From positions 8,759 to 72,758 of the forward strand of contig JAUCBJ010006248.1 of the NCBI GenBank assembly GCA_032718475.1: DNA of 64,000 bases, in the 5' to 3' direction. Source of the stretch: Nemertoderma westbladi (lineage: Eukaryota; Animalia; Xenacoelomorpha). Positions 29,901 to 53,900 of this stretch are shown here, piece by piece. Below the pieces are notes generated by a model. That model ran no database searches. It was given only the letters and a program-made list of their open reading frames with translations, and was not told the origin of the DNA. A program made the translations under genes and the position numbers. Position 1 is the first letter of the stretch. Each line of letters opens with the position of its first letter.

Positions 29901-32900
29901 GCCAGCTCTCTCTCTTTCTCTAGTAATGCACTCCCTTCTTCCATCTGTCTCTCTAATTCTCTCTGGTCCAGCGCCACCAGATCGAGCTGACATGCCAGAT
30001 CTATTTCTAGCACCCGTCTTACTTTTGCGGAGGATGTAGCAGACTTCTCGGTCGCAACGGACTCCCGCTGCCTTCCCGTCCTACTAACTTTCCCCCGCTT
30101 TCTGGAATTCTCGCTGACCGACAAGACCGAATCCTTGGGGTTAACCTCGGATTCGCCCTCCTGCGGTCCCCTCCAACCCACTAACTTAATTCCCCGGGCA
30201 TCGACTAAGTATGGCCCTATGTACACTACACCAGGCTCCATACCCCTACATTCCCACAGCTCGAACAGTTCGGTGGCGACCCCTCTCGCTCTCTCATTGG
30301 CTAGTTCTCCCTGCCCAAAGCGCACTAGATAATCAAAATGTTTATTCGACTCACCTAGCCGCTTCTCTAACTTCACCTGGTCTATCTTCGCCCCTTCTTT
30401 GGCTTCCCTCAACTGTTTTCTGGTTGCATTGTAGGCTCGGCGGAGCCGGTCGCTGACTCCGACGTCCTCGTCGCCGACATCCCCTCTTTCTCTCCGTGTT
30501 CGGCGTCGTACCGGCGGCCCTACCGTCGCCGTTCCGGTGGGCCGTCCATCGCCCTCGGCCTGTGGCTGGCCGGCGACATTGGTACGTCGACCGCCGTCGT
30601 GCGTCGACTCGTCTCTCCTTTCTCTCGACTCGCTCGTTCCTCGCTGTGGTAGACGACCGCCCTCCACTTGGGCTACCGGATCGTTCGGGTTTGAAGAGTC
30701 CGGCGTCCTGGGTCGATACCGTCGCGTCGCGGCCTCGCGGATCGTTTCGTTCGTATCGTCCGGGGTCCGCGGCGTTGTTGTCTCTCCCTCCTGACTCATC
30801 TTTAACTTCTTATTGGTGGCTGGCAGTCACAGTTTCGGGTAGTTGGAATTTTATTACTGTTACGGGATCCGAGAATCCCGACCAGTTGGTTTATTTACGC
30901 GTCCCCGCCGCCAGTCAAAGAGTTTGTTATCTTGTTATCATTCCGGAATTGTTAATGAGATATAATATAAAATATAGTCAGGTAAAATAGATAGCACAAT
31001 TGATAGATTGACTTATGTATGGTAGTATGTGATATAATTGGTGATGGTGGCGGCAACGGTAATAAAAGTATCATACGGTCCAAAGGCCCGCAGAGTGTCA
31101 TGCATAATCAAAAACAAAGATATCACCACAGACAGGCAGTATACTGGTATAATAGGGTATGTCACGGTACAATGCACAACAGCCAAAATCAGTACAACCA
31201 ACTACAGAACTAACTAGCATCTAAGCTTGGCCTCTTAGGTCCTATAATAATCTACTCTAAAATATCCTATAACATCCCCCCTGTTGAAAGACTTGAGACC
31301 CATCAAGTTAACATACTAATATAAAAGACCCATCACCAAAGTTTATAACCATCCAGCTATTGCTTAAATTCTACTGTATTAAGTGTTTTTGGTTTTAGAT
31401 CGTATCCTTGTATTAATCAAGTTTGAGTTGTCCAATAGCAATTCCCAGATAAGGTTTAGTCATCATATCCAGATCTCTTGGACATCGTTTTAGATGCGAT
31501 ACATTAACAGTGAAAGTTTCGTGTGTATGGGATTCAGAGTGATTCGAAAGTAAATCTGCATTATGCTCGGACAATTTCATTATTTTGAATGGTCCGAGAA
31601 AGGGTCGGGCAAATTTATGATTTGGACCTTTACATTCTGACATTGAGTGTAAAAACACTCGGTCACCCACATTAAATCCATGTTTTAGTGTTTTCTTATT
31701 ATATTGAGTACTCCAGTTAATATGTTCCTTTGCCAATTTGTTTCTGACCATCTGGAATGTAGTAGTTAAGCTATCCTTTAGATCAAGTGCAAAGTCTTCA
31801 ACCTCTGCATACTTCCGTGGAATGAAATTCAGGAAGTTGTCGAAAGGAAATTGAGGATCACGTCCATGCATAAGGAAGAAAGGTGTTTCACCTGTTGTCA
31901 TATGGTAGGAGCTGTTATACGCAAAGGTAACCTGATCAAGATAACAATCCCAATCGGTTCCATGATCATTAACTAAATGTGATAGAATATCGCAAATTGT
32001 TCTATTCATTCGTTCTACAACTCCGTTACATTGTTGGTGATATGGGGTTGTAAATATTTTCTCAATTCCCAGTAGTTTTGAAACTTCCTTTATCAAAGAA
32101 CTCGTAAAGTTTGGACCTTGATCAGACAAAAGTTTATTAGGAACACCATGTTGACATATAACATGATCTATTAAGGCTTTCGCCACTGTAGTAGCACATT
32201 CATCACGCAAAGCAATTGCTATTACCCATTTAGTGAAGTGATCCACAAACACTAATGCAAATTTATTACCTTCAATAGATAATGGGAGTGAAAGTAAATC
32301 TACTGCCATTAATTCCATTGGATAATATGAAGTTATAGCAGTTAAGGGAACCTTTTGATATCGGTGAGGAGGCTTCCTTGTGAGACATTCCAAACAAGAA
32401 TTACAGAAACGAACTGTATCGCGATACATGTGAACCTATTCCCCTTCAGAATCACAAATTACCACCATATATGGTAACATTGGCGTTACTTAATTTAGCG
32501 GTACTAAAAGCACTGTACATGCAATCTAATTTAGCGCAAATATAATGGAAATTAAAGCAAATATACAGTTAGTCCTATTGATGCCAATAACAGCAAGCTT
32601 ACATCAAGGGTTTTATAGGAAACTTGCTACCATAGAACTATTTATTTATATTTCATTACAAAATTACGTAGGTAGGGCTACATAGTGTACAAAAATGGAT
32701 AAGATTCACGAATATGGATATTTTATTCTCCTTATCTAAATATGGTTGCGCGTCATTATAGCTTATCTAAATAATTATACTGTATAACGGGCTAATAATG
32801 GTACACAGCGCCATATATCGTAACACCGCTCCAAGGGAAACCAGCAATGTTTCCCTCCAATTGTAGAAGAATATAGGGCGATGTAAACAAACAAAATAAA

Positions 32901-35900
32901 ATTTACTTTCAAATAATCTAAATACTTGGTCTTATAATAGTTCTAAATATTTACAAAATATTGCATAAATATTGCATAATGATTTTACGTACAAATTAAA
33001 TTTACAAAATATTATCTCTCTCACTGTATAATGATTACTAAATACAAATTAAATTTACAAAAATATTGCTTTCTCTTACTACATAATGATTACTACATAC
33101 AAATTAAATTTACAAAAATATTGCTCTTTCATTTACAAATTGACGATCTACATATTGAAATGGAACATGGCTAGGACAATGTCCCCCATTTCCCATCTCA
33201 AATTAACGATCAACAATAACAAAATAAACTAAATATAAACGTATTTGAGGCTAAATTTTTAACTAAATTGCATTAAAGGCCGATAATCAAACTAAATATA
33301 AAATACGTAATAATTTCTTTCATTTTCGGACTTTACTTAATTTCTTATAAAAAACGCAAATCATCTTGGTTTGATGATTGTTCAGGTAAGTGAAAGGAGT
33401 AAGCCAAACCCGCGGGTTTGTCTCCCCAATCACTTCCTTTGCCTCTTTCAATAAACTTTAGAGCAAATAAAGTCATATACACAAAATCAAATATGGTATA
33501 AAGTATTTACTATTTCCAACGGACTACAAAGTGAAAGTATTTCCTTTCAATATTTTTCGGCCTTCGAAATTAAAATTCTAAAATATGGATACGACTAGTG
33601 TATATGAGTCCAGTTGAATGTTTATCAAAACCTATGATATACATCAGAGCGACGATGATGTATATGTCTAGAGTTTATCGGTCTGTGATATTATAGTCTC
33701 ATCGGCTAGCTCCTGGGTCTTTCGGGCTCGCTCCTCTCTTTTGTCCCATCCCCAGATACACCAGTCTACCCCCTGTAGACTCTGTTGACGGCGTCCTTGA
33801 GGCGTCACTTCCCGGAACCGGCGACGACGTTCCCTGGGCACCAACTATCTCTCGACTGGTGCTCCTCCCTCAGCCTCGTCCCATTTGCCGTGTCCCTGCG
33901 GGCGCCTCCGCCGACTCCTCCTTCTGGTCCTTGCCGCGAGCTATGAGCTCCGGCTGCTGTCGCTGTGGGCGCGGCGGTCCGTTGCTCCTCCACTCGTTCA
34001 GAGGTCAATGACCCCAAACGAGTCTCCTTAGGCCGCCAATTGTGCGTTGGGCAATAAATCTAGACGTATATATCAGAGCGACAATGATATATAAAGGATT
34101 GGACATATTCGGGCTTAATAATGCGTGCGTCGAAACTTCCCGAAATAATTTGGAGTAAAATATCGTATAAATCGCGGATCATGGGTATAGTTAGTAGACG
34201 GATGGACGGCGCGAATCTATTGGATGTCGGAACAGCTTGAGTTGTCTTTTTGCGTCGTATTTTTACCTCGTCTGGATACGTGATGGATGTGTGAGCTTCC
34301 TCTCCTGGTGAAGCGAAGTGAACATGGTCCAGGGATTCGAGAGTTCCAACTCCGTGGGTTTGGTACTCGATTCCCATGCCGCTTCGCGCCGCGCCTCTAG
34401 GTCCTTATAGGCTCGGTAAAGCGAAATGGCCGCCGCTTCTATCAAAGCGGGTGTCGAACAGGGTTTAATCTCCGTATATGGATCTAAAGTCGTAATGGTT
34501 GGCGTAATAGGTCTCGGAGGTCTCTTTCTGCTAAAGTCGATACTGATCATCGTGTTGCTCATCGGGTAACCTTCCTCGTTGTATCTAAGAAACTGGTGAG
34601 CTTGACACCGCGTTAATATCGGTTCAGGATTCTGCTTGTTCAGTCGGTCGGGAATCGCTATGTCTTGCTTATTCATGCATTCGCCGCATTTGTAGAACAA
34701 CTTGTATACGCTGAAAACCTTTGGCATCTCCTCGTCCTCGCCTCGGGTCCTCCTGTAAAGATGTATCCCGTCGAATCGATCTCGGACGGCACGTAGCGGT
34801 TCATCGTGCCGCAAATACATATTCATATGGTATAGACGGGCGATTTCCTCGTCAGGGTCGGCGCTAATGTTACACACATCAAGGGCGAAGTCGTGGGGAT
34901 AACGAGTGCGATATTCCTTTCGTAGAACCTCCATACGATCTCCCATGGTAGTAAACATTAGAGTCCTTACACCCATGTCGGGCGAATGGTAGTTCCGCTT
35001 CCTCCCTGGCGATAAATCCATTCCTCGGTTGCGCTCGAATTTCCTTCTCCATTATTGCCGCGTATATACATATATCCCAATAGCCCGTTACGCAAACCAA
35101 TTACACTGTGGGTAAATCAGTTAGATGGTGCGGAGGGACAAACTTCCTGAGCTACCCAGCCGCCTTCCAGCAGTTCAGGTTCGGCTTTCTAGATCCCGTC
35201 TCATTCCTAACTACCTTCTAACCTATTCCCATGCATAGCGCAAAAACTTCGGAGATAAACTGGCCATGACCAACTCACTTTTTGATGCCCAAGCTACTCC
35301 CAATACTTGTACTAGACTACAGTAGTTAGAAAGGACAATAGCTATGGCGTTCGACTATACCAAACCCGCAGGTTTGATAATCGAACACCTCACTCCACTG
35401 CAAACTACTGAGTGGGGTCTGTGTACGCCTCTGGTGCTACTAACCTTTAGCACCTTGGTTGTTGTACTGTTGGCACAAATCTGTGGAAGTTACTGAACTC
35501 AATTTACACTCCTACATAATATAGCCGTCACCATGGTTTCTAAATGCTATTTTCCAGGCTTCACGACTTTCAAATTACTGTATTTCTATAGACGAATTCT
35601 AGAACGCGTCTATATGCAGCGTTTGGAATTGTCTTGGGTTCACTTCTAATTTTTAAAAATTTTTAATTTTCCAAACATTTTATGAAAATAAAATTTTGTT
35701 TTTGATACCCGCCAGACAAATTCTCAACGCAAATCACCACAAACCCGCTGCTATGCATTTCCTAGTATTTGCATACGAGGAATGCATACAAAGTGAATTT
35801 GCGTTCCAACACTAATTTTGGTTTGAGGCAGAAGACAAATTATAGTCTCCTGTCTCGATGCGTGTCTCCTCTAATAACACGATATCTTGGACCGGTCTGT

Positions 35901-38900
35901 CCAAGGTGTGTAAACCATTAGTTTTACACTTCTTTTGGTTCGGACACTTGCACCTTATTTTCACAGTGACGGTGCGTACTATATTTTGCACGTCCGGGTA
36001 TATGTGCAAGATGACTCCGGTCTCCCAATATTTTCTCTTGACAACTGGTTCGGTTATTAATACGTAGTCTCCTCTTTGGAGGCTCCGAACTGTTTTGTAC
36101 CACTTGGATCTGGTGGATATTGTGGGAAGATAATATTCCTGCCAATATTCCCAGATGGTGTACGCTACGAATTGAGTTATTTTCCAGCTCTTTCGACTAT
36201 ATAGGTCGGCACTAATGGGTTCTGATGCCGGCACAAGAAATGCTGGACTCTGCATTAGCAAATGATTCTGCGTTAATGCAACACCGTCTGGCAACATAGC
36301 TATCGGCCTCGAGTTCAATGTATGCTCGATTTCGATGAAAGCTGTTACCAGCTTGTCATCGGTAAGTTGTCTATTTACAGGCAATGTTTTAGCAATGGCC
36401 TGCTTTATGGAGCGAACCAAACGCTCCCAACTTCCTCCTCTCCAGGGACTTTCTGGAGTGTTAAATTTCCACTCCACTCTTTGCGGCAAAAGTGCTGCAG
36501 AGATTTCTCTATTCTGCGCCGCCCTATGAGCTGCGTTCAACTCGCTATTCCCCCCAACAAAGTTTGTACCCTTGTCGGAGTAGAACGCCTTTACTAGTCC
36601 TCTCCTGGCCATAAATCTCTTTAAGGCCAGGAGCAGAGATTTGGTCGACATGTCTGCCACACGCTCTATATGTATGGCTCTACTGGCCATACATATCAGC
36701 AACAGGCCCCATCTCTTGTGGGTCAGCCGTCCACTCTTTGCCTCAATCGGACCAAAGCAGTCCACCCCCGTATTTGTAAAGGGTGAGTCATATGCCTGCA
36801 CTCTCGCTTCCGGGAGTTCAGCCATCTCCTGTTCCAATACTCTGGCGTTCACCCTCTTGCAAACCAGACAGGCGTCGTACATTGTACCTACTGCCCTGCT
36901 TGGCTGCAATAGAATGAATCGCTGTCTCGCTGCTGACAAACAGTGTAACTTTCCCACGTGATGCAACCTTGTATTTATATCCCATAGAATCGCTCTTTGC
37001 AATTCTATTGGGTGACTAGGGATTATCACTGGGAACCTAAACTGTGAGTTTATGTCGACAGTCTTGATTCTCGATCTATGACAAATAAAACCCTTATGGA
37101 TTAATGGGCTCCATTTTCTAAGGGGTTTATAGAGAACTGGTCATTGAGCCGATAATAGATAGAATTCTTTCGGGAAGGCACACATTTGATAATGCTTCAA
37201 ATGTTTTAATTCCGCTTGATCAATCTCATCCTCGGTCAGAGGTTGTTTCAATTTCTGGATTCGCTCACTATTAGTGCTCGTTTGTTCTCCTAAATGTTTC
37301 GAATGTTGTAAACAAAGGTTCGAAACATATCGGCTTAACCACGCAGTTCTTTTACAAATTGTCAGCGAAGAGGCGGACGAATTTAGTAATTTGTCATAAA
37401 TACTACATGGCTCTAATGCCAGCGATGGTTGCCCGCTAGCTAATGGAAGTTTCGAATCCAAACCCGCAGGCTTGGAGACCGAAGGCTCCATCTTTTCGGT
37501 CATTTTCTGTCCGTCACTTACCAATTGTGACCCTTGTGTAGTCTGTAAGGGTAGTTTTATGTCATGACTTACCCTTCCGGACCTAGTAGTCACGTAAGTC
37601 TCTAGGTCTGACAGGTCTCTGGGCCGCTCCAATGACTCTTCAGGCCGCTCCAATGACTCTTCAGGCCGCTCCAATGACTCTAATTTGGCTTTCAACTTAG
37701 ACTTGGAGACTTTCTCCACTTTGACTTCTGCATCCATTGGCATCGGATTAGTTACTATCTTCAGTCGCTCTGGCCAATGCTCCTGTGTCCTCGTTAGAAA
37801 ATCAGGTCCATGCAACCAAAACTCCTGGGACTCCTCCTGACAGAATTCGGTCGGCATAGCACCTCTCGAAGTTATGTCGGCCGGGTTCAATACTCCTGGA
37901 CAATGTCTCCATTGTTCCTTCGTCGAGAAGTCGACGATCTGAGCGCGTCTGTTGGCCACAAATGTCTTTAGTGCAATATTGTCAGCTGCAATATACACTA
38001 ACACTAAGGATGCATCCGTCCAATAGAATAATGTCAATGTTGTGTCTAACTCCTCTATTATCTGCTTACTTACCTCAACTGAGACTACTGCCGCCTGCAA
38101 CTCTGCACGAGGGACAGTCATGTATTTGACCGGCATTGTCTTTGATCTAGAAGTCACAAAGGCCGTCTCAAACTTGTTCTGACTTACCTCTTGGCGAAGG
38201 TAGGCTACCATACCAAAGCCGGTGTCACTTGCGTCACTGAACAAATCTCGATTTCGATGAAAGCTGTTACCAGCTCGTCGTCGGTAAGTTGTCTATTTAC
38301 AGGCAATGTTTTAGCAATGGCCTGCTTTATGGAGCGAACCAAACGCTCCCAACTTCCTCCTCTCCAGGGACTTTCTGGAGTGTTAAATTTCCACTCCACT
38401 CTTTGCGGCAAAAGTGCTGCAGACATTTCTTTATTCTGCGCTGCCCTATGAGCTGCGTTCAACTCGCTATTCCCCCCAACAAAGTTTGTACCCTTGTCGG
38501 AGTAGAACGCCTTTACTAGTCCTCTCCTGGTCATAAATCTCTTTAAGGCCAGGAGCAGAGATTTGGTCGACATGTCTGCCACACGCTCTATATGTATGGC
38601 TCTACTGGCCATACATATCAGCAACAGGCCCCATCTCTTGTGGGTCAGCCGTCCACTCTTTGCCTCAATCGGACCAAAGCAGTCCACCCCCGTATTTGTA
38701 AAGGGTGAGTCATATGCCTGCACTCTCGCTTCCGGGAGTTCAGCCATCTCCTGTTCCAATACTCTGGCGTTCACCCTCTTGCAAACCAGACAGGCATCGT
38801 ACATTGTACCTACTGCCGTGCTTGGCTGCAATAGAATGAATCGCTGTCTCGCTGCCGACAAACAGTGTAACTTTCCCACGTGATGCAACCTTGTATTTAT

Positions 38901-41900
38901 ATCCCATAGAATCACTCTTTGCAATTCTATTGGGTGACTAGGGATTATCACTGGGAACCTAAACTGTGAGTTTATGTCGACAGTCTTGATTCTCGATCTA
39001 TGACAAATAAAACCCTTATGGATTAATGGGCTCCATTTTCTAAGGGGTTTATAGAGAACTGGTCATTGAGCCGATAATAGATAGAATTCTTTCGGGAAGG
39101 CACACATTTGATAATGCTTCAAATGTTTTAATTCCGCTTGATCAATCTCATCCTCGGTCAGAGGTTGTTTCAATTTCTGAATTCGCTCACTATTAGTGCT
39201 CGTTTGTTCTCCTAAATGTTTCGAATGTTTTAAACAAAGGTACGAAACGTATCGGCTTAACCACGCAGTTCTTTTACAAATTGTCAGCCAAGAGGCGGAC
39301 GAATTTAGTAATTTGTCATAAATACTACATGGCTCTAATGCCAGCGATGGTTGCCCGCTAGCTAATGGAAGTTTCGAATCCAAACCCGCAGGCTTGGAGA
39401 CTGAAGGCTCCATCTTTTCGGTCATTTTCTGTCCGTCACTTACCAATTGTGACCCTTGTGTAGTCTGTAAGGGTAGTTTTATGTCATGACTTACCCTTCC
39501 GGACCTAGTAGTCACGTAAGTCTCTAGGTCTGACAGGTCTCCGGGCCGCTCCAATGACTCTTCAGGCCGCTCCAATGACTCTTCAGGCCGCTCCAATGAC
39601 TCTAATTTGGCTTTCGACTTAGACTTGGAGACTTTCTCCACTTTGACTTCTGCATCCATTGGCATCGGATTAGTTACTATCCTCAGTCGCTCTGGCCAAT
39701 GCTCCTGTGTCCTCGTTAGAAAATCAGGTCCATGCAACCAAAACTACTGGGACTCCTCCTGACAGAATTCGGTCGGCATAGCACCTCTCGAAGTTATGTC
39801 GGCCGGGTTCAATACTCCCGGACAATGTCTCCATTGTTCCTTCGTCGAGAAGTCGACGATCTGAGCGTGTCTGTTGGCCACAAATGTCTTTAGTGCAATA
39901 TTGTCAGCTGCAATATACACTAACAATAAGGATGCATCCGTCCAATAGAATAATGTCAATGTCGTGTCTAACTCCTCTATTATCTGCTTACTTACCTCAA
40001 CTGAGACTACTGCCGCCTGCAACTCTGCACGAGGGACAGTCATGTATTTGACCGGCATTGTCTTTGATCTAGAAGTCACAAAGGCCGTCTCAAACTTGTA
40101 CTGACTTACCTCTCGGCGAAGGTAGGCTACCATACCAAAGCCGGTGTCACTTGCGTCACTGAACAAATCTCGATTTCGATGAAAGCTGTTACCAGCTCGT
40201 CGTCGGTAAGTTGTCTATTTACAGGCAATGTTTTAGCAATGGCCTGCTTTATGGAGCGAACCAAACGCTCCCAACTTCCTCCTCTCCAGGGACTTTCTGG
40301 AGTGTTAAATTTCCACTCCACTCTTTGCGGCAAAAGTGCTGCAGAGATTTCTCTATTCTGCGCCGCCCTATGAGCTGCGTTCAACTCGCTATTCCCCCCA
40401 ACAAAGTTTGTACCCTTGTCGGAGTAGAACGCCTTTACTAGTCCTCTCCTGGTCATAAATCTCTTTAAGACCAGGAGCAGAGATTTGGTCGACATGTCTG
40501 CCACACGCTCTATATATATGGCTCTACTGGCCATACATATCAGCAGCAGGCCCCATCTCTTGTGGGTCAGCCGTCCACTCTTTGCCTCAATCGGACCAAA
40601 GCAGTCCACCCCCGTATTTGTAAAGGGTGGGTCATATGCCTGCACTCTCGCTTCCGGGAGTTCAGCCATCTCCTGATCCAATACTCTGGCGTTCACCCTC
40701 TTGCAAACCAGACAGGCGTCATACATTGTACCTACTGCCCTGCTTGGCTGCAATAGAATGAATCGCTGTCTCGCTGCCGACAAACAGTGTAACTTTCCCG
40801 CGTAATGCAACCTTGTATTTATATCCCATAGAATCGCTCTTTGCAATTCTATTGGGTGACTAGGGATTATCACTGGGAACCTAAACTGTGAGTTTATGTC
40901 GACAGTTTTGATTCTCGATCTATGACAAATCAAACACTTATGGATTAATGGGCTCCATTTTCTAAGGGGTTTATAGAGAACTGGTCGTTGAGCCGATAAT
41001 AGATAGAATTCTTTCGGGAAGGCACACATTTGATAATGCTTCAAATGTTTTAATTCCGCTTGATCAATCTCATCCTCGGTCAGAGGTTGTTTCAATTTCT
41101 GAATTCGCTCACTATTAGTGCTCGTTTGTTCTCCTAAATGTTTCGAATGTTTTGAACAAAGGTACGAAATGTATTGGCTTAACCACGCAGTTCTTTTACA
41201 AATTGTCAGCCAAGAGGCGGACGAATTTAGTAATTTGTCATAAATAGTACATGGCTCTAATGCCAGCGACGGTTGCCCGCTAGCTAATGGAAGTTTCGAA
41301 TCCATTGGAGACCGAAGGCTCCATCATTTTCTGTCCGTCAGTTACCAATTGTGACCCTTGTGTAGTCTGTAAGGGTAGTTTTATGTCATAACTTACCCTT
41401 CCGGACCTAGTAGTCACGTAAGTCTCTAGGTCTGACAGGTCTCCGGGCCGCTCCAATGACTCTTCAGGCCGCTCCAATGACTCTTCAGGCCGCTCCAATG
41501 ACTCTAATTTGGCTTTCGACTTAGACTTGGAGACTTTCTCCACTTTGACTTCTGCATCCATCGGCATCGGATTAGTTACTATCTTCAGTCGCTCTGGCCA
41601 ATGCTCCAGTGTCCTCGTTAGAAAATCAGGTCCATGCAACCAAAACTCCTGGGACTCCTCCTGACAGAATTCGGTCGGCATAGCACCTCTCGAAGTTATG
41701 TCGGCCGGGTTCAATACTCCCGGACAATGTCTCCATTGTTCCTTCGTCGAGAAGTCGACGATCTGAGCGCGTCTGTTGGCCACAAATGTCTTTAGTGCAA
41801 TATTGTCAGCTGCAATATACACTAACACTAAGGATGCATCCGTCCAATAGAATAATGTCAATGTCGTGTCTAACTCCTCTATTATCTGCTTACTTACCTC

Positions 41901-44900
41901 AGCTGAGACTACTGCCGCCTGCAACTCTGCACGAGGGACAGTCATGTATTTGACCGGCATTGTCTTTGATCTAGAAGTCACAAAGGCCGTCTCAAACTTG
42001 TTCTGACTTACCTCTCGGCGAAGGTAGGCTACCATACCAAAGCCGGTGTCACTTGCGTCACTGAACAAATGCAGTTCTAAATCAGCTGGTAATACCAGCT
42101 GATTCGGAAAGTAGGAGCGGGGTACATCTATATTTTTCAATAGATGTAACTCGGCTTCCCACTCTCTCCACTGCTTTGCATGTATAGGGGATATTGGCTC
42201 GTCCCACTGTAGGTCGGACAACCAAATTTTCCTCATACATACTCGTGCCTGTAATATTACCGGGCTGATAAAAGTTCATCGGGTCGAATAGTCTACTCAT
42301 TGTGGATAAGCAGATTCTCTTAGTCAAAACTTTGTCTGGACTACTGGGCTCAAACCTAACTCTCACCTGGAACTTATCCGTGTTCGGATTCCAAGCGAGT
42401 CCCAGTACTTGCGCCATGGGGATGGGTTCTACACCCAATTCTATGTCTCCGCTCCCGCGATCTTTCACCGGGAACGACTCTAATAGGGCCTCTGAGTTGG
42501 TGGTGAACTTGGTCAATGGGAAACCTCCTGTAGCTAAGCACTCCTGTAGGCCGTGAGCCACTTCTATGGCTTGTTCCGCTGTGTCCTTGGACACCAATCC
42601 ATCGTCCATATAGAAGTTTCTCAGGATGGACTCAGTAACGTCTACCGGATACTTACCAATCTGGGCCATTGCCGTTTTCTTTAGAACAAACAGCGTGCCG
42701 TTGGGACTATCGTGGGCACCGAATATTCTGACATACATCTGGTATGTAACCACTGGGCCGGATAGGTCATCATTCTCGAACCAGAGAAATCTGAGACTAT
42801 CCTGGTCCGCCTTGCAGGCTCTTACCTGGTGAAACATCGCCTCCATGTCGCATGTAAACGCGAATCATCGCTGTCTAAAGCGTAACAGTATCCCTATCAA
42901 GTAGTTATTTAAGTTGGGACCATCCATCAACTCTGAGTTCAGGGACATACATCTATAGACTGCTGCGCAGCCATTGACTACTCGGACTTTGTCTGGTTTG
43001 TCAGGGTGAGTCACATAGTGGTGTGGGAGGTAATAAGTCTGGTCCATCACTAAGACGGGGTCCTCTACATTCCCAGCAAATCCTTTGGCAAAATAGTTGT
43101 TTATCTGGGCGCAATACTTCTCCCTAACCTCTGGATTCTTCAGCAACTGAGCCCTTATTCCGTTCAATCTTTTCAAGGCTAAGTTATAGTTGTTCTCCAA
43201 CTTAAGAGGTTGTCGACGCCACAACATTCCAACTTCAAAATGTCCTGTCGGTAGCAGACTTATGGTGTCTTCCATCATCTCCAGTGACCGTTTCTCATCA
43301 GTGGACATGGTTAGGTCATACCCACCGGGTTCCATTGCGTCCCTATCCAGCCATTTGATGGTTCTAGCTCCTGTTTCGAGGTCCTGGCGTATCAATTCCT
43401 TCTGCAACTCCTCCTCACTGTATTGGAAAATGTCGAGGTCTCGATATTTAGCCACTTGACCCTCCACTATGTCAGTATAAGTCAAAACGTTACTCAAATA
43501 GGTGACGTGGGCCGCTAAACCAGACCCACAGGTCTGATAACAGTAGTCCTCGGGTTCACTATCTGTCCGGTCGTTGTAGAGTGGTTCCGACAATCTAACA
43601 TTATTGGGAATTAACTCCTTGTCCGACTCGCTAACGTCACTATAGTGGTCAATACAGGTTCTCCTAAACTCGTCTGTCTGGTGGTTCTACTAACGCTGGT
43701 TGAGTTATTCTTTGGCTTGTCGCCACCTGAAATCTCATAAGACATGGGTACTCGTGTATACCAACCTAATATAGTCCTATAGGCATGTGGTCCATTTACA
43801 TGAGGCTCAGCTGGTCTCGTTTCCCATATTTGGTGCGCGATCAGCTGTTCTGCTCCAATTAACATAGATACATTCCTATAACCTACCTGGTGTCTCGGTA
43901 TTCTGAGCTTGTCAAAATATTCCTGTGCTATGGGACTCATTGGTGGCACCTTACCTAACTGCCTGCCGAACCCTTTCATAGCTAGACACTTAGATCCGTC
44001 TAATGGCAACGCTCTCCGTTCTTGGCAAGTGTGCTGGTCTCTCGGGAGTAGGGAGTCTAGTTCTACCGAAATCTTGTGTCCCTTGAGGTCCCCTACCCCG
44101 TGCATGGACTTTAACTCTATTTGGATTTCCTCGGCGTCCTGGAAGCTGGAAACGGCTCTCGCCACTTCCTCTTCTATATACGATAATGTGGACGCAGTAT
44201 CCAACATCACATATATTCTCTTCAATACCTTGTCTCCGGTAAGTTTCACCGGAATCACGCTGAATATTTCCGACGTGGCCGATGATAAATACGTCCGTGC
44301 GCTGGTTGATGAACTATCCGCGGTGAACCCTTGGCAGGTCACCTCTCTCGCGCTCGCCTCGCCATCCTCGTCCGACGAACCTGGTTCATACCCATCATCC
44401 TGGATGCCGGTGTACGTATTTCTCCTTATCGTTACAGGATCTCTGCTCCCCTTCCTTTGAGGATTTCTCTGTAGGCAACGGTACGTTGGTGTATGGAAAT
44501 CCGCATCTAACAACTTGTGATGTTGTCTGCCGCATTCCATGCATCCGTCCTTGCTGTTCGGGCACTGGCGCCGTACATGACCTGGCGCATGACATGTCCA
44601 ACAGGTGTCCAACGTCCGCACTTGAACTCTTCTCTGTTCCGAAGTTAATTCTTTGAACCGTCTGCAACTGTCTAACTTATGGTCATCAGATCTTACCTCT
44701 TTTAGTAAGCAGAACTGGCAACCTACAAATCCATCCGGCAACTCCTGTTGCTTTACCTTAGGTCTATCTGTCCGCTCACCTGACCATACTCGCGAGTCTG
44801 ATCTAAAGGCAGGGGTACTCGAATTGTATCTGTATACTGAGTTAAAAGTCACAGGGGTTCTGTCATCGTCAAAACTTACCATTGACTTACCGGTAACAGG

Positions 44901-47900
44901 TTTAGACTCCCTCATATTCTCCTCTGAGAAGTTTGATTTCATCTCTGCTACCGCATCTGTGGTTGGTTATCATGTCATGGATGTGTTGAAGTGTCAACAC
45001 TTTCCCTTGACTCTCTAACTTATTCTCTAATTTGCGCCATTTCTGTCGGTAACGCAGGTTTAAACGTCTTATTATGCTCTTTAAAACTTCGGCGTGATCA
45101 CCATGATAAGGTAGATTTACTGTCCTCAAGATGTCTAATGCGTTCAACAGCTCTAACGGAGTTGTAATCCTTCCGCCCTTACCCAAGTCTTCTACTATCG
45201 ACTGTGCCATCTTGGTTTTATTCCCATAGATGTCGCTAAGTGTCTTCATAGCTAATTCAAATGCTCTTTCATTGCCGACGAAGTTATCAGCAATGACTCT
45301 AGGTTCTCGATGGAGCATCTGTAGTAGATAGTTGAACTTTTCGTTGGGAGTAAAGGTGCTGTTAGTCAGCTGTTCGTCGATATAGGTTTTGAACATCCTC
45401 CAATGTTTATGGTTGCCCATAAACTTCTGGGGTTGTTGCGTCGGCAGTCCTTGCCTAGCGGCAAACTTACCTATGTCTCTAAGGGTTGCGTCGTTCTGGG
45501 TTAATAAATTATTTACTTCTGCAGGGTTATTAAGTCTGGTCTTTTTCCGGGGATTTAAACTTACCTGCTCCGCGTCGGTCCTTCTTTCCTTCCGCTTCAT
45601 TTCTTCCTCTTCATCGCTTGAGTCTGTGTCAGTCCTCAGCGCTCGCGTTGGTTTATGTGCCGAAGCCCTGTCCCAGGCCTCTTGTATAAATCTTTCCGCC
45701 GAATTTTCGAAGTTGGGATTATGGATCGTAGGGACAGGCGTTCTTACCTGAGGTCTATGTGGTATAGTTGCCTCCGATATGCATACTCGTTGACTAGGTT
45801 GGACTTTATCTAATTTAGGCCTGCTAGGATTAGAATTACTTCTTACCTGGCCTGCTTACTTTAACTGTAGGTTACTAAGCATGTCCGTTATAGGTTGGAT
45901 GTGCGGTGTTATAGCTTGCGCTAAACTAGCACTTAACTCATCCCTCGTAATAAATTCCTGGCTAGGGTTCTGCTGTATTGTCGGCTCTATCTGAGTAATC
46001 CGCTGTCTCTCATATGATCCCTCTTCCGGATTAACCCGGAAGTTCTCCGTCGAACTGGGTCGGCGATCCGTCCGCGTATTCCAAACCCGCGGGTTCGGTT
46101 CGCCCAATACTCGGCCTCTCGGAGTTTCTTCTCTAAACTCCCCATTGTCTCGATAATCTCTGTGTCGCGGTGCGCCGTCCTGATGGTGCGGATCCTGCAC
46201 GATGGGTGAAGCACTAATACCAACCGGCGTGCGATATGTAGAGAACGGTTTAGCGATCCGTGTACTCATAATAGCTGGACCAGGTATAAGAATTCTGGTC
46301 ATCGTGGACTCGCGTATAGTCGGAGTCCTCACCTCCTGTTCGGCTTTCTGCTGTGCGAACAGTTCTCGCAACTCAGTACCTACACTCGCCCCACATTCTT
46401 CGATCATTCGCACCCCCTTCTCTGCGATTTCATTCGCCTTCCTGGTCCGTTCTTCACTCTCTAGCTTTAGTCTTGCACTTTCCAATTGCGCCAGTTTGCG
46501 TTGTTCTTCTTCCCTCGCAAGTCTCGCTGCGCTCTCTTCTTCCAGTCGCGCCTTCTCTTCGTATAATGCGCATCGCTCTTTCTCGATCTCGAGTTCGCGT
46601 TCTTTGCGCTCGCGTTCAAGTTGGAGTTCGCGTTCAAGTTAGAGTTCGCGTTCTTTCTGTTCATGTTTGGCTTGAAGTTCGCGTTCCTTGCGCTCGCGTT
46701 CGGCTTGCTCATGCTTACTTATGTCCTCCAACTCGCGCAGCTTTGCGTCTAACTTACGTGTGCGCTCCCATTCCCGTTCGGCTTCCTTCCGTGCCTCCGA
46801 TGAACGCAAGACCTCTGCCTGTTGTTCGTCTAGTCGGCGTCTTCTCTCCTCCACCGAGTTGTGAGAAACAAGGGATCTAGCGCATATAACCTTCCCTCGC
46901 GCGTGACTAACCTGAGAATCGCCACTGTCTCTAGATGCGTCGTCGGGTGGTGTTAACGTCCTCTGTTGGATGTTCTCTGTCGTCGGTAGCACCTGACCCG
47001 GTACCACCACTCCATTCTGCATCAGCCAGCTGGTGACTTCCCTCTGATACTTTCGCTCTTCCTTGTCTTGGGTCTCTTCCCGCTCCACTAAGTTCCTCGA
47101 CTCTGCGTCACTCACCTGAGTCGCCTGCTCTTGTGATGCCCATAGCAACCAGTTCTCTGTCCTAACTCGTTGGAATCGCTCCGATAACGTGCGGTGTTCT
47201 AACAAAGCTGCTAAAGCCCTGTCGTAAATCCTCGTCGCCACATCGCTCGACTGAGACTCCATTGCTCTCTTCGCTAGGACTGCAAGCTCCTCCATCTGCT
47301 TGAATAACGCTGAGTTGTATCCCTTTCTAATCTCTACTAACCCTTCCCTTCCGATGTTACCAGAGTAACATCTTCCTTACCTTGTCCGTCGTCCGGGTTA
47401 TATGTCCGGCATGCGCGCGAAGTTTCTTTTTTATCGCTATGTCCAGTTGCTGTTCGCTTACCTGACTCACACTCAGTGGACTTGAGGGATTATTTCGGGA
47501 ACTACGGGTACTCCTTACAGCCGCTGGGGCCACGGCACTTGCCATACCCACAGGTCTGGAAACCGGGCTCCGGGCTCTCGATTCTGCTACACTACTCTCC
47601 CTATCACTCACTTCTGGCTGGGCTGCTATGCAATCCTTCCTTACAGTAGTGGTAGGGGATCCTAATACTATTACTACCTCATCTGGCTCATCCTCACTGG
47701 TTACTGTCTCGTCCTCCTGTTCACTTACGTCAGCGTCAATCGCTGCGTCATCATAGTCGGCATTGTCGTCAACAGTTATATTGACGCTATCGTCAGTCGG
47801 CGGTCCAGCCGCCGTCTCATAGCTGTCCTCTAGTGCCTCCTTCTCTGAGACACTCATAGTCTAAGTATATAATTTGCCTTCCGGCCAAAATCTCGCAAAA

Positions 47901-50900
47901 TTCGAGATTTATTAATTTAATCGAAAATACGATTAAATTATTCGTCAAATAATTAGTTGGTCTTAAATGTCGAAATAAATTCGCAACATAATATTGTGAA
48001 TTTAATAGGATATAGTTATAGCAAATACCGGTATAATATTTAAACAAAAATATTATTCTTTAGCTATTATATAGCATTTAAATACCGGTATGACACAAAA
48101 TAGTTTCTGAATCTAATTCAAAATATTCAAAAATGAATTAGTCACCCAAATATTTCTAATTTTATATATATAGCTCTAATCGACGTAATTTTAATTTCAA
48201 ATATTATATGTATCCACTAGCGTGTGGCTACACCTTCGGGTTGCGACACTCTCTCTCTCTCTCTAAATTAAGCGATTCAAAAAACCATGGCCGGCTAAAC
48301 CTAATTATCCTAACTAATAAATTGAGTTCAGTTTCGCAGTTAAACAATCGGTAATTTTTTACTGCTTCCACAAATACAATGGTACCAACAGAACAACTAA
48401 CCTTGTTTGCTGTGAGATTCCACGTCCGCGTCAAAAGTTTCAGGCTCTTCGCTGATTGCAAACCGAACCCGCAGGCCCACACAAACCCCAAACTCAGAAG
48501 CTCCGTCTCGCCATGTATCTCCAGATGGTATAAAGCAACTAAGCGGTTATCTAACATACCGGTACAAAAACTCTAGATTTTATTATAAAACAATTTTGAC
48601 CGAAACTGAGTTCTCACAAACCTAGCTAAAAATTTCAAAACTTACTAATTTACAGTCTGCCCTAACGGCCTAATGAACTGCTGTATTTGCAATTAGTAAA
48701 CGCACTACTGTATATCTCACTGTACGCAGTACAGCAAGTAAAACAGTACACTAACCTAACAGCCTAAGTGAACACTGTATGCCTTACTGTACATAGTACA
48801 GCAAAACAAAATAAAACGTGTTTTACTGTTACGAAGTAACAGTAAATAAAAACAGTACACTAACCTAACAGCCTAATGTACTACTGTATTGCGATTAGTG
48901 AACACTCTTTACTGTTGCAAGCAACAGCAAATATCACGTGTTTTACTGTTAAACAAGCAAATACCTGGTTCTTACTGTTAAACAGGGGCGATCAGGAGCA
49001 CGTTATTACTGCCGCACTGCTGCTAAACACAAAACTGCTTCTCACTGCTGGATGGCGCTAACCTGGCCATCCGCTAATATATTTTACTAATTTTATATGG
49101 CTCCTGCAAATCGCTTGTTCCTTTCTCTGTTGATTGCTCAACAGAGAGCTAACTGTTCGAATCTATGAGCCACGCAGGAATAACCAAAACAATAAACCCG
49201 AATCGACTCCCTAAGCTACTTAAAACGAGTGCGGGTGGCCTAGCACTCGGAATTCACTTATCGCAAAATACTGGAATTCACTGGCAGAATCGTTGAATGT
49301 GAGAATGTTTTAATAATCTACGGGGACAGATCTATTACTTTCTTAGGTGCCGAAACTTGGCCTTTGGCTGGTTTTTGACCAGCAAACTTACTACTGCTGT
49401 ACTGTATACTGGACACTGCTGTCAACCTGTTGCCCCGCTATTTTCAAATAACCGCCTAGCGTGAATAGTCTACAGTACTCCAAATAATTACTTTAACTAC
49501 TCTCCGCTATGCTGCGTACAAATTCTTAATTTTACACTAATTAATTACAGTCATAAATACGAAACAGCGTACTAATTACTAAGTGTTCCAGAATATGCAA
49601 TTCTAATTTATTACGTACCGGGTTACACTAGCAACAGCCTAAATACTGTATTATTTTGACCTAATCAGCAATTATTTATCGTAAACTAAGAAATAGAAAT
49701 CAATCAAAGGGAAAGGCGCCTATCTAAGCATTCACATTTAAGAATCAGGGACTCTTTAGCAACACAACACAAATAGTTCAAACTAAGTCAGTAGTACGGC
49801 AGATAGCGCTAACTACACCAATCAGGTAGTGCATTAAATACCCGTACGTTAGTACATCAGTATACCAGTATTAGTCATCCAATCAGTCAGTGTAAGAACC
49901 ACAGGTCACCCAAAGCCACACATAGGACTCCTATCTAAACCCAAATTCTGCCCCCCTAAAACTACAAAGTAGGGATGGAAATCTGGATCATCAGCCCCCT
50001 AATTCTGTAACAGTGGCTGGTCCCCGGTCCTCAACTGACTAGCCCCGACCGCAACGGTGGCCCCCCGCCAGCGTTGCCCCGCTTTGGATCCTCTGCACTC
50101 CCCTCCGTCGCTTCCCCCCAGTGCGCGCCCGCCGCACCTACCGGTACCTTAGCCCTCCATTAGAATGAATAGCTACCGTAGCGGCGCATGCAATCACAAA
50201 CAGTCTGACAGTCTAAAGAAATCCCGTGGGATTATCGCATCTTAAATCATATAGAACCATTAATCAAAAGGGTAGAAATCATAGTTCAAATTGTAATTTG
50301 CAGTAACCATCAAGATTGATTGAGAAATACAGTAAATAATAAAGCAGAAATTACAAAATTGCGAATTATTGCAAGAAACAAACATATAGGGTCAGAAACT
50401 GAGAATACAGATTGAGAGATGCACATACCGGAAATACAGCCAATTTATAGGTGATTCATAAAGGATGATGCAATAATCCTCTGATTGGTTCCCCAATCCG
50501 CGCTACCATTAGACCAACCTGGAAGCAGCTAGACCAATAAGGAAGCCGGATTGTGAACCTATTCCCCTTCAGAATCACAAATTACCCCCATATATGGTAA
50601 CATTGGCGTTACTAATTTAGCGCAAATATAATGGAAATTAAAGCAAATATACAGTTAGTCCTATTGATGCCAATAACAGCAAGCTTACATCAAGGGTTTT
50701 ATAGGAAACTTGCTACAGTAGAACTATTTATTTATATTTCATTACAAAATTACGTAGGTAGGGCTACATACTGTACAAAAATGGATAAGATTCACGAATA
50801 TGGATATTTTATTATCCTTATCTAAATATGGTTGTGCGTCATTATAGCTTATCTAAATAATTATACTGTATAACGGGCTAATAATGGTACACAGCGCCAT

Positions 50901-53900
50901 ATATCGTAACAGTATGGGTTCAACATGGATTCTTGGATTGGAAATGTGACGGATTTGGAATCAACAGCGCACTTTGTAATGTAGACTTACCTACCCTAAG
51001 GTGTGTGATGACCGCCGGTTCTCTTTCACACCACTAGTAGGCACAACCGAAGGCGTATGGGATCGAGAAACAGATTATTTGTGTCTCGCCGAAGCACTGG
51101 AGGCCCGGTGGAACGGGAAGCAGGGAGGGGGTTTCACCGGGGTTCTGGGGGCAATCCGTAGGAGGCGACTGTTCGGCCTGCGGCAGACGAATTCCCTCTG
51201 TCTCCGTGGAGGGCGCCGCCCCTGGCGCGGTCTCGGGTTTGGGGATAGGGCGGGAATCGTATGAACAGTCGACTGTCTAGATTTATCGGTTTCCGACCCG
51301 GACAGATGTTATCGCCTGCACAATGGTCTTCGATATTAACCTTAAATATTTCATATAAACTTTAGATATATAATAGAAACTTGATTTATTGTGCTATAAT
51401 TTCTACATTATTATTAAGTTCCACGCAATTATATTCGGTATGTGTTATTATATAATTACTTTTTTCCACTTTCGAATAAATCTACATGATCTAAGTCATA
51501 ATCTAGTATTTGACAGAGTTAGGTCCAATTCGGTAAACGTTAGGTACTGTAACATTAGGTACCATAGCGTTAGGTCCTGGTGTGCCTAGGTCCCTTACTT
51601 AATGTCTAGACTTAATATTTATCTTCGGTTATTGTTTTGGTTCGAAAATCCGTGCACTGCAACGTGCACAGAATCCCTTAATTGTCCCCAAGGACCCGAA
51701 CCCCCGAACACCCGAACCTTTTTGAGCTTATAATAGTTTATAGCTTATATAATAGTTTATAGCTTAAAATAGTTTATAGCTTATATAATAGTTTATAGCT
51801 TATATAATAGTTTATAGCTTATAATAGTTTATAGCTTATATAATAGTTTATAGCTTAAAATAGTTTATAGCTTATATAATAGTTTATAGCTTATATAATA
51901 GTTTATAGCTTTTATAATAGTTTATAGCTTATATAATAGTTTATAGCTTATAATAGTTTATAGCTTATATAATAGTTAATAGCTTATAATTCATTCATTC
52001 ATTGTGGCTATAATCAAATTAAATTGATATAATTGTGAAGTAAAAAGTGCACAGCACGAATAGAAATAGAAACTAAATAATTAATAAAATTAATTAATAG
52101 AATATAAAGTAATTATAAGGTTACATTGTGAAAGGCAGTAAAATGAATGGCGATGCACCAAATGATAATTGATACAGACAGATAATAAGAAACCATAAAA
52201 ACTGTCATTCAGTTTTGTTTCGTTGGGGCCGGTCAACTATACAATACATAATAGTATAATAGACATAGTTAGTTATTTGTACATGATAGTCTGCAGGTGG
52301 TTGTGAGTATCTATGTGTAAAGCGTGCCTGGGAGCCAACTAACAATAGAATATGTTCACAGTAAATTATAAAAAAGGCCATTTTTCAAGCGCTCAACTGT
52401 ACATGTACACTATATAACGTGTACACACTGTATAACTAAAAAGTCATAGAGGTCAGATTTCCCAGGAACCTGCTGTAATAGACAACATTCACTCTCATTG
52501 AATCCAGGGCAAGAGTTTGTGTTGTATTCTGAGGAAGGAGCTATCAGCTGGGTAAGATGTTTATTTGCGAGAGAGATCCCACTCTATAACTTGGCAATTG
52601 CTCAAATCCATTCAGCTGAATGGCACAGTAGAGCATTGATTCTGGGTTACAACTAATAAACAATCAATGACAAATTCTCGTTGATTTGCACACCAACGTC
52701 TAATAATTGGATGAAGTGTGTTCGAGAGCGAAGGATATTGAGCTCAACATAAGAACTTACATATTCTTAATCATCTCGAGAATTAATTAATTAATTAACG
52801 CGTAACCTATTCCATGGCCAGTACATATACAAAAACCACCATACAAAATTTGGTAACGCTCCACCGGTTCGTTTAGTAAAAAATAAGAAAAGTAAATTTT
52901 CTTCGGCCGTTAAGCTAGGGATTACGCACAAAGTCTGACGACTTATTTCCAGTGCGGTCCCCCCAGAACTTTACTTCCCAGAGGTAACTCCAGTACTCAT
53001 TTAGCTACCACTTAAGGATGCCAGGCAGAGATGCGCCCTGGCTGGTCCCTTTAAAGCATTCATGCCGAAACGAAAACTGCCCTGGCCCATGTGATGATCG
53101 AACCCACGACCTACGGGAAATGTGAATTCAATGCAACCACTACACAAAGGTGGTTTAGGCGGTGATACGGCTATGACAAATCTCCAATTTATTTAATGAC
53201 AAACATAGGTAGATAACCAGCCCATTCACAATTGTATTATAGATAATAATAAAACAAGTTAAATCTAGGTCTACCATTTAAATGCACCCAAATTTAATAA
53301 CCAAATTGTCGTGTGCCTATTATAAAGTTTCAAAATGTATGCTATTATACTTTTACTTTAATAGTCACTACTGGTGTGTGTAAGCATAATAATTATATTA
53401 TGCAATTTAACTTACAATAATTAAATCATGTTTTTTTGAAATTTGAACTTTACCATGCTCTATACATTATATTATCTTAGTTTTTCCTTATGCTGGAACA
53501 TATTTATTTTTAAATATTTCCTTGTTTCACATAGGACATGCAAGTACAGCAGTTCTTTAACGAAGGGACCCAATGCAGTGCCTGTCAGGATGGCCGTGTC
53601 TGTCGGGGTGGTTTGTGTGCGCTTCCTGATGAAGAGAGGGACCTGATAGAAGAATTACCAAATTGCTCCAATGAAGCACATCAAGATGTTAGTTTAGAAC
53701 AGTACTTTTAATAATTAACAATATAAATTTAAAGCTGTAAAAATAAATATTCTACTTTTTTATTATATTCTTGTCACAAATATTCTAGTAAGATGCTCGC
53801 CCATTGAATTATTTTTTTATTTTAAGTATCTTTTATTGTTAGTTATGGAATGTGATAGATTATTGCTCAAACATAAAAAAAAGAATGGCAGGCCTCGGCA

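Follow-up and report, generated by a model that had tools for sequence, protein, structure and literature searches.

Anatomy of the locus

The window, by which we mean the whole 64-kb stretch of DNA analyzed here, holds an LTR retrotransposon on its minus strand (element A), and a second element (B) is nested in the 3' LTR of the first. The parts of element A are as follows.

50912..50916, minus strand: upstream copy of the TSD, motif CATAC, at the outer edge of the A 5' LTR
48976..50911, minus strand: A 5' LTR, TG...CA, 1,936 bp; family-level contig depth stops in the bin holding 50911
35812..47860, minus strand: A gag-pol, with DUF1759, zinc knuckle, RT, Peptidase_A17 (RNase H region), integrase and DUF5641, containing stops and frameshifts
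36325..42070, minus strand: tandem triplicate of the A RNase H-integrase region, about 1.9 kb each
34263..35051, minus strand: extra open frame of 262 aa between A pol and the 3' LTR, no Pfam match
32429..32825, minus strand: first part of the A 3' LTR, corresponding to 50911-50552, with a short purine-rich tract just before it
23145..23702, minus strand: last part of the A 3' LTR, corresponding to 49533-48976
23140..23144, minus strand: downstream copy of the TSD, motif CATAC, at the outer edge of the A 3' LTR

Pfam matches assign element A to BEL/Pao (DUF1759, E value of 2e-08; Peptidase_A17, 3.3e-33; DUF5641, 6.5e-16), as does the order gag, protease, RT, RNase H, integrase, in which the protease motif was spotted by eye and the RT was identified through homologues bearing PF00078 and PF05380. 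Other marks of BEL/Pao present in A are the TG...CA LTRs, the TSD and a purine tract, albeit a short one, before the 3' LTR. Neither A nor B has the Ty3/gypsy chromovirus Pol that characterizes the Tf1/sushi group, and the Pfam domains of both are those of Pao. The distance from A pol to the 3' LTR is about 3 kb, and the three RNase H-integrase copies, at 97 to 98% identity, may reflect either duplication or an assembly artifact.

The edge of the A LTR was originally placed by reference to the TSD and the second LTR, and this placement holds: CATAC occurs at 50916-50912 and at 23144-23140, and the 3' LTR piece at 23702-23145 has 16 mismatches to the 5' LTR over 558 positions. (An LTR start at 50012 was an early idea, discarded after the TSD was located at 50912.) A stretch of 1,018 bp (50551-49534), which holds the 10-mer described below, is absent from the A 3' LTR, where fragment D and element B stand in its place, so the second LTR gives no support for the 10-mer. 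Contigs from three to four public DNA runs span the whole A LTR at family-level depth and cross both 49534 and 50012, from which it follows that the middle stretch is part of the A LTR. In the region of 32465-32520 (minus strand), the A 3' LTR carries a 37-bp insertion that is not in the 5' LTR, and a contig joint near 50610 hints at copies with a similar insertion. Outside element A, the window contains tandem arrays at 51674-52026, 57037-58248 and 59366-60053, with units of 17 to 19, 31 and about 160 bp.

Element B and the adjoining fragment D comprise the following.

31070..32428, minus strand: fragment D, a Gypsy-type integrase (rve, weak SH3_Tf2-1), a polypurine tract and about 205 bp of U3-like DNA fused to the B R/U5
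30858..31069, minus strand: B 5' R/U5, whose homology to the B 3' LTR starts 2 nt ahead of the 9-mer
31059..31067, minus strand: B 9-mer TTTTATTAC, 5' copy (3' copy at 23911-23903)
30849..30857, minus strand: B slot GTAATAAAA, without TGG, at offset 0
24276..30848, minus strand: B internal region, DUF1759 gag and aspartyl protease
23703..24275, minus strand: B 3' LTR, 573 bp, preceded by a polypurine tract

B is an internally deleted BEL/Pao element, matches to RT, RNase H and integrase being absent among the frames scanned. Its two LTRs have 209 bp in common, upstream of which the 5' copy consists of D-derived DNA; the B 5' LTR is therefore chimeric, and the origin of the B R/U5 is uncertain. 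The joint of Gypsy-derived U3-like DNA to the B R/U5 (31069/31070) lies 2 nt ahead of the predicted primer; it could have arisen by template switching or recombination, or could be what remains of a splice acceptor. Two near-perfect palindromes (24175-24203, 29 bp; 24251-24274, 24 bp) open the B 3' LTR.

Complementarity between the primer-binding slot and the LTR

Where a primer-binding site is expected, element A has the following features.

48966..48975, minus strand: A primer-binding slot GTAAGAACCA, directly 3' of the LTR end TTTAACA (48976), without TGG
49892..49901, minus strand: exact 10-nt complement of the A slot, TGGTTCTTAC, the predicted self-primer, with 49892 as its prospective 3' end
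49904..49906, minus strand: three extra pairs, to 48965-48963, past a 2-nt bulge
48694..48975, minus strand: leader array of seven ACA/GTA units resembling the LTR end plus slot, starting at 48975, 48946, 48912, 48884, 48826, 48787 and 48708

The sequence-only reading had held that the A LTR is followed by this slot instead of the TGG of a tRNA PBS, and that the LTR itself carries a perfect complement of 10 nt with three pairs beyond a 2-nt bulge; both observations stand (48975-48966 and 49901-49892). The 18-nt PBS for tRNA-Arg or tRNA-Gly, a trait listed by the ICTV, is thus absent in A, which has no TGG after the LTR; a tRNA PBS is a described trait of BEL/Pao and not the family's sequence criterion. 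A tRNA search of the 64-kb window returned no tRNAs.

The complement at 49901-49892 is the sole exact match of its kind on the minus strand of the window, and the chance expectation for such a 10-mer match at offset 0 is 0.003 in the 1,936-nt LTR. When slots were shuffled and offsets of 0 to 5 as well as splice junctions were allowed, 2 of 200 shuffles attained the 10 bp of A; for B, 4 of 200 attained 9 bp. Taken alone, the pairings of A and B are real but modest. B was previously read as having the layout of A with a different 9-mer, the product of compensatory change: the 9-bp pairing between its slot and LTR is confirmed, but compensatory change relative to A is not borne out, since no alignment of B to A is possible and the B 5' LTR is chimeric; A and B form an analogy and no true compensatory pair.

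An intron within the A 10-mer was considered and rejected, as the best spliced match reaches only 5 bp and the contigs show no joint over 49850-49960; A was accordingly handled as contiguous. Contigs over that interval list no substitution at 49892-49901, which is uninformative because just four sites are listed in the 111 nt. From the sequence, it is likely that A used its own RNA as the primer for reverse transcription.

The first four units of the leader array are spaced 28 to 34 nt apart, and the units are possibly relics of faulty second strand transfer. Three contig variants from the host genome, each a single contig, differ from A at the primer site. One pairs exactly with the leader unit at 48787-48778 (10/10), the other two match the units at 48946 and 48912 at 8/10, and in one further contig the slot is altered at positions matching the first variant (9/10), all as judged by eye; because the contigs are short and unlinked, these matches are suggestive only.

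Covariation across related families

A profile of the A RT and 14 homologues recovered 511 relatives in metagenome contigs, and the best 80 of the 511, which formed 52 clusters at 88% identity, were used. We scored one locus per cluster in the 24 clusters having an LTR end and enough LTR, and two others were added later, L015 (13 bp) and L057 (5 bp under the strict rule, 13 bp with an AAG acceptor allowed). For the other 26 clusters the needed region is apparently missing (by eye, not all in full), although among their partial loci a match can be seen for the exon-1 side in L001, L003 and L033, where that side is present, and solely for the exon-2 side in L056. The slot sequence played no part in calling splice sites. 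The LTR end was set by a second LTR in 11 families and by terminal inverted repeats in 4, and in the remaining 9 of 24 it is the ACA upstream of gag, chosen with the match in view.

In all 24 families the slot pairs with the family's own LTR over 10 to 15 bp, and this includes every one of the 11 in which a second LTR sets the LTR end. Together with A and B, cognate pairing in these 26 families spans 9 to 15 bp, with a mean of 11.7 bp versus 6.3 bp for 650 swapped pairs; the observed pairing sum of 305 was attained in 0 of 100,000 permutations (null maximum, 214), though the 24 families are not fully independent given that some share slots (L030/L037; L032/L061/L066/L023). The covariation between slot and LTR that the sequence-only reading had proposed to look for in related families is thus present. 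The duplex starts within 0 to 5 nt of the LTR end, the position required of a primer, and TGG occurs in the first bases of a single slot of the 26 (L060), which also matches its own junction over 10 bp.

A later sample added nine loci from contigs in prokaryote assemblies, of which three lack the region and six were scored by the same rule. Four pass (L084 to L087, 11 bp across the junction, with 0 of 200 shuffles each), L088 has 9 bp by the rule and 12 bp by eye at offset 8, and L083, with an incomplete LTR, has 5 bp. These BEL/Pao contigs inside bacterial genome assemblies (L081 to L089) are most likely mis-binned animal DNA. The viral contigs scanned for relatives contained no loci. A looser scan admitting any AG chose different junctions for L004, L030, L060 and L085, and statistics were therefore taken from strict-rule scoring only.

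An RT tree, one of the checks first suggested for this element, was built and shows A as a long branch (2.96) apart from the 42 other rows, but it is unrooted, with neither named references nor an outgroup, and so does not place A in a named clade. Because A stands apart from all of the relatives, their support for it is distant.

A complement assembled by splicing

In 21 of the 24 relatives, the best pairing spans a predicted GT-AG intron of the LTR (71 to 426 nt where measured), with several bases contributed by each exon, and the intron-split complement, missed in the sequence-only reading, is the commonest form in the sample. L055 and L068 have a complement of 12 bp that is contiguous, as it is in A and B. 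In L002 the complement is contiguous in the 3' LTR, which lacks exactly the GT-AG intron that is present in the L002 5' LTR and in the sister locus L004, and L030 shows the reverse, its 5' LTR lacking the intron exactly at GT-AG. By their sequence, these intron-less LTR copies are DNA traces of reverse-transcribed spliced RNA, with the proviso that contigs may merge genomic copies. Covariation can be read off directly: changes on both sides of the junction distinguish L019 from L030 and L037, and between the sisters L085 and L086, two exon-end differences are mirrored by differences at the two slot positions that correspond to them. The unrooted RT tree is compatible with a single origin of the intron-less state and does not separate single from repeated intron loss. 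At L008, the 5' LTR copy (position 509 onward) begins 14 nt before the splice donor and is without U3, which may represent a truncation or a start site.

Folding, promoter motifs and poly(A) signals

After splicing, the predicted probability of the helix is 0.35 to 0.99 in 10 of 12 relatives, against at most 0.27 in the unspliced form; in the other two (L065 and L086), it is 0.0 after splicing. For A, the value varies with the window folded (0.93, 0.82, 0.004 and 0.0), and for B it is 0.02 or less. The loop in A measures 916 nt versus 47 to 243 nt in the relatives where it was measured. Refolding A with six hypothetical R/U5 introns removed left the helix probability unchanged, and there was no sign of such introns.

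Signals in the A LTR that bear on the transcript are as follows.

50703, minus strand: TATAAAA, a further TATA in the A LTR
50443..50497, minus strand: best promoter-like set, CCAAT-type boxes at 50497 and 50488 plus TATAAAT at 50449, by motif match only
49607..49612, minus strand: AATAAA downstream of the predicted cut (a second at 49314), which, if used, would close R

The 10-mer was at first taken to be plausibly the 5' end of the transcript, a claim that is unsupported, as stronger TATA boxes lie 550 to 800 nt upstream. The motif TTTAGATAG, then put forward as a weak TATA-like box, is a poor match that is surpassed by TATAAAT at 50449 and TATAAAA at 50703; the AATAAA named alongside it (49612-49607) is present. 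Moreover, since the complement straddles a predicted splice junction in 21 of 24 relatives, an exon lies upstream, and the primer cannot be the first ~11 nt of the RNA in those families. With an internal primer, self-priming would not be refuted by a TSS remote from 49901, although the sequence-only reading had named this as a refuting condition. A TATA within 300 nt of the donor was found in 4 of 17 relatives, giving no rule for start sites.

AATAAA or ATTAAA follows the predicted cut in A, in B and in 24 of 28 loci. In the A LTR, a donor-like GTACGT lies 6 nt ahead of AATAAA (49618-49607, minus strand), which, if used for splicing or bound by U1, could silence the poly(A) signal of the 5' LTR. 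The idea that slot offset and the spacer following the purine tract mirror each other is unsupported (Spearman 0.41, P = 0.13, n = 15).

Discussion

On the strength of these sequence patterns, we consider it probable that BEL/Pao elements use a Tf1-like form of self-priming, usually with a splice-built primer, and that A and B are intron-less forms. The proposal in the sequence-only reading of a tRNA-independent, self-priming BEL/Pao lineage is well supported by family-specific complementarity of slot and LTR together with covariation, and it is from these that we infer priming itself. Transcription would start upstream of the complement, and where families bear an intron, the complement would come into being when the 5' LTR copy is spliced; A and B would carry it ready-made. 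The complement would fold back onto the slot, and cleavage immediately 3' to the duplex (in A, after 49892), presumably by RNase H as in Tf1, would free a 3'-OH, from which RT would copy U5 and R and then jump to the 3' R, with R bounded by the cleavage point and the poly(A) site. Plus-strand synthesis would copy the primer and in doing so rewrite the slot, a step that would produce the observed covariation; the unspliced 3' LTR copy, being without the complement, could not mis-prime; and occasional splicing of the 3' LTR copy would give rise to intron-less lineages.

We also incline, if only slightly, toward a broader reading in which much of BEL/Pao is primed by spliceosome-assembled RNA, only the spliced 5' copy pairing with the PBS. 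A and B would then be intron-less descendants, and the leader array of A would be a fossil record of successive primer changes, its units matching variants still present in sister subfamilies.

What covariation demonstrates is a helix and not a primer, and the ICTV gives tRNA-Arg or tRNA-Gly priming for the Belpaoviridae (PMC8742986); the helix might accordingly be real and selected but structural or regulatory (in packaging, dimerization, translation or splice sensing), while the primer, at the site or close to it, is a different RNA such as a tRNA fragment. We judge this unlikely, in that the helix, 9 to 15 bp long, always starts 0 to 5 nt from the LTR end, and the slots vary by family, each tracking its own LTR, which a fixed set of tRNAs would not explain; even the one slot of 26 with an early TGG (L060) matches its own junction over 10 bp. 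It is less probable still that the complementarity is a functionless by-product of reverse-transcription errors or of local duplication-inversion. The repeated LTR-end-like units in the A leader and the heavily rearranged locus speak for such an origin, which we nevertheless regard as barely credible and which the junction-spanning matches already contradict: in 21 families, the complement is absent from the intron-bearing DNA and arises only on removal of an intron (71 to 426 nt where measured), and copying errors would not maintain a junction-spanning match across divergent RT lineages.

A doubt of a different kind concerns A alone, whose relatives might self-prime while its own 10-mer matches by chance or as a relic and GTAAGA serves as a splice donor or is one unit of a decayed leader repeat. 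The shuffles for A by itself (2 of 200), its long loop and unstable fold and its long branch all leave room for this, as does ACA/GTAAGA at the LTR end and slot, which resembles the splice donor consensus and has six similar units further along the leader. A donor cannot, however, account for the set, many relatives having slots without an initial GT, and the complement in A is a unique, exact, sense-strand match inside the LTR, upstream of the poly(A) signal and at offset 0. B has the same layout with other letters, L055 and L068 are likewise contiguous over 12 bp, and the variants in the genome carrying A change on both sides. Furthermore, A is without a tRNA-type slot to fall back on, and yet its family is high-copy with LTRs that are 97% identical. 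We therefore hold a chance or relict 10-mer to be very unlikely, and self-priming remains our reading for A as for its relatives.

If this reading is true, it corrects a taxonomy-level statement, that of tRNA priming in the Belpaoviridae, and self-priming would be a solution found in each of the three superfamilies of LTR retrotransposons. If primers are built by splicing, initiation of reverse transcription would be coupled to RNA processing by the host, and the 5' LTR copy would be simple to tell from the 3' one. Because tRNA fragments that target the PBS silence retrotransposons, self-primed elements would be beyond the reach of this silencing, and they would likewise be overlooked by annotation filters based on the PBS. 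The reading makes a sharp prediction, a single RNA break at a named base in each family (49892/49891 in A).

Comparison with known systems

The nematode element Cer7 has been proposed to encode its own tRNA-like primer, an arrangement different from that of A. For BEL/Pao, the accessible text of the Sinbad paper (PMC554778), of a BEL/Pao survey (PMC3118150) and of an annelid LTR survey (PMC8220671) yielded no passage on priming. We found no report of self-priming or of a splice-built primer in BEL/Pao in the literature covered, which included the accessible parts of PMC3601003 and PMC6934838; a prior mention elsewhere, as in subscription journals or Repbase reports, is possible.

As described by the ICTV, the Belpaoviridae (Semotivirus; BEL/Pao) have an 18-nt PBS for tRNA-Arg or tRNA-Gly, LTRs of 0.2 to 1.2 kb and genomes of 4.2 to 10 kb (PMC8742986). 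A resembles them in the set and order of its domains, its LTR termini, its 5-bp TSD and its animal host context, and differs in having no tRNA PBS and an LTR of 1.94 kb (PMC8742986). The fungal GalEa copia elements are, like A, LTR elements without a tRNA PBS, and in the accessible part of their description they have a conserved hairpin site, which lies in the internal region and for which the authors found no LTR complement, whereas the partner in A and its relatives is in the LTR (PMC5445492).

Self-priming has been predicted for Tcn1 and for the copia TAR lineage, according to the available text of PMC6317226. Within that lineage, Houba/Osr-1 of the plant Ty1/copia elements offers a parallel, a prediction made from complementarity outside Ty3/gypsy; it differs in belonging to the copia superfamily and to plants, and the text available mentions no intron-split primer (PMC6317226).

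The closest likeness is to Tf1 and Tf2 of Schizosaccharomyces pombe, to Tj1 and to the Tf1/sushi/Tcn1 group at large, which, in the sources as available, have no tRNA site and use RNA of about 11 nt from their own LTR that is complementary to the PBS. In Tf1 the primer consists of the RNA's first 11 bases, released by an RNase H cut (accessible text of PMC7175516), and Tj1 is described as self-priming like Tf1 (accessible text of PMC4600332). The corresponding complement measures 10 bp in A, 9 bp in B and 10 to 15 bp in the 24 relatives. Tf1 is a Ty3/gypsy element, whereas A and its relatives are BEL/Pao; slot offsets here run from 0 to 5 nt, those of 3 to 5 nt departing from Tf1-style adjacency; cleavage has been shown in Tf1 and is inferred here; and while the Tf1 primer is the 5' end of its RNA, the primer predicted for A and its relatives would be internal and, in most families, made by splicing.
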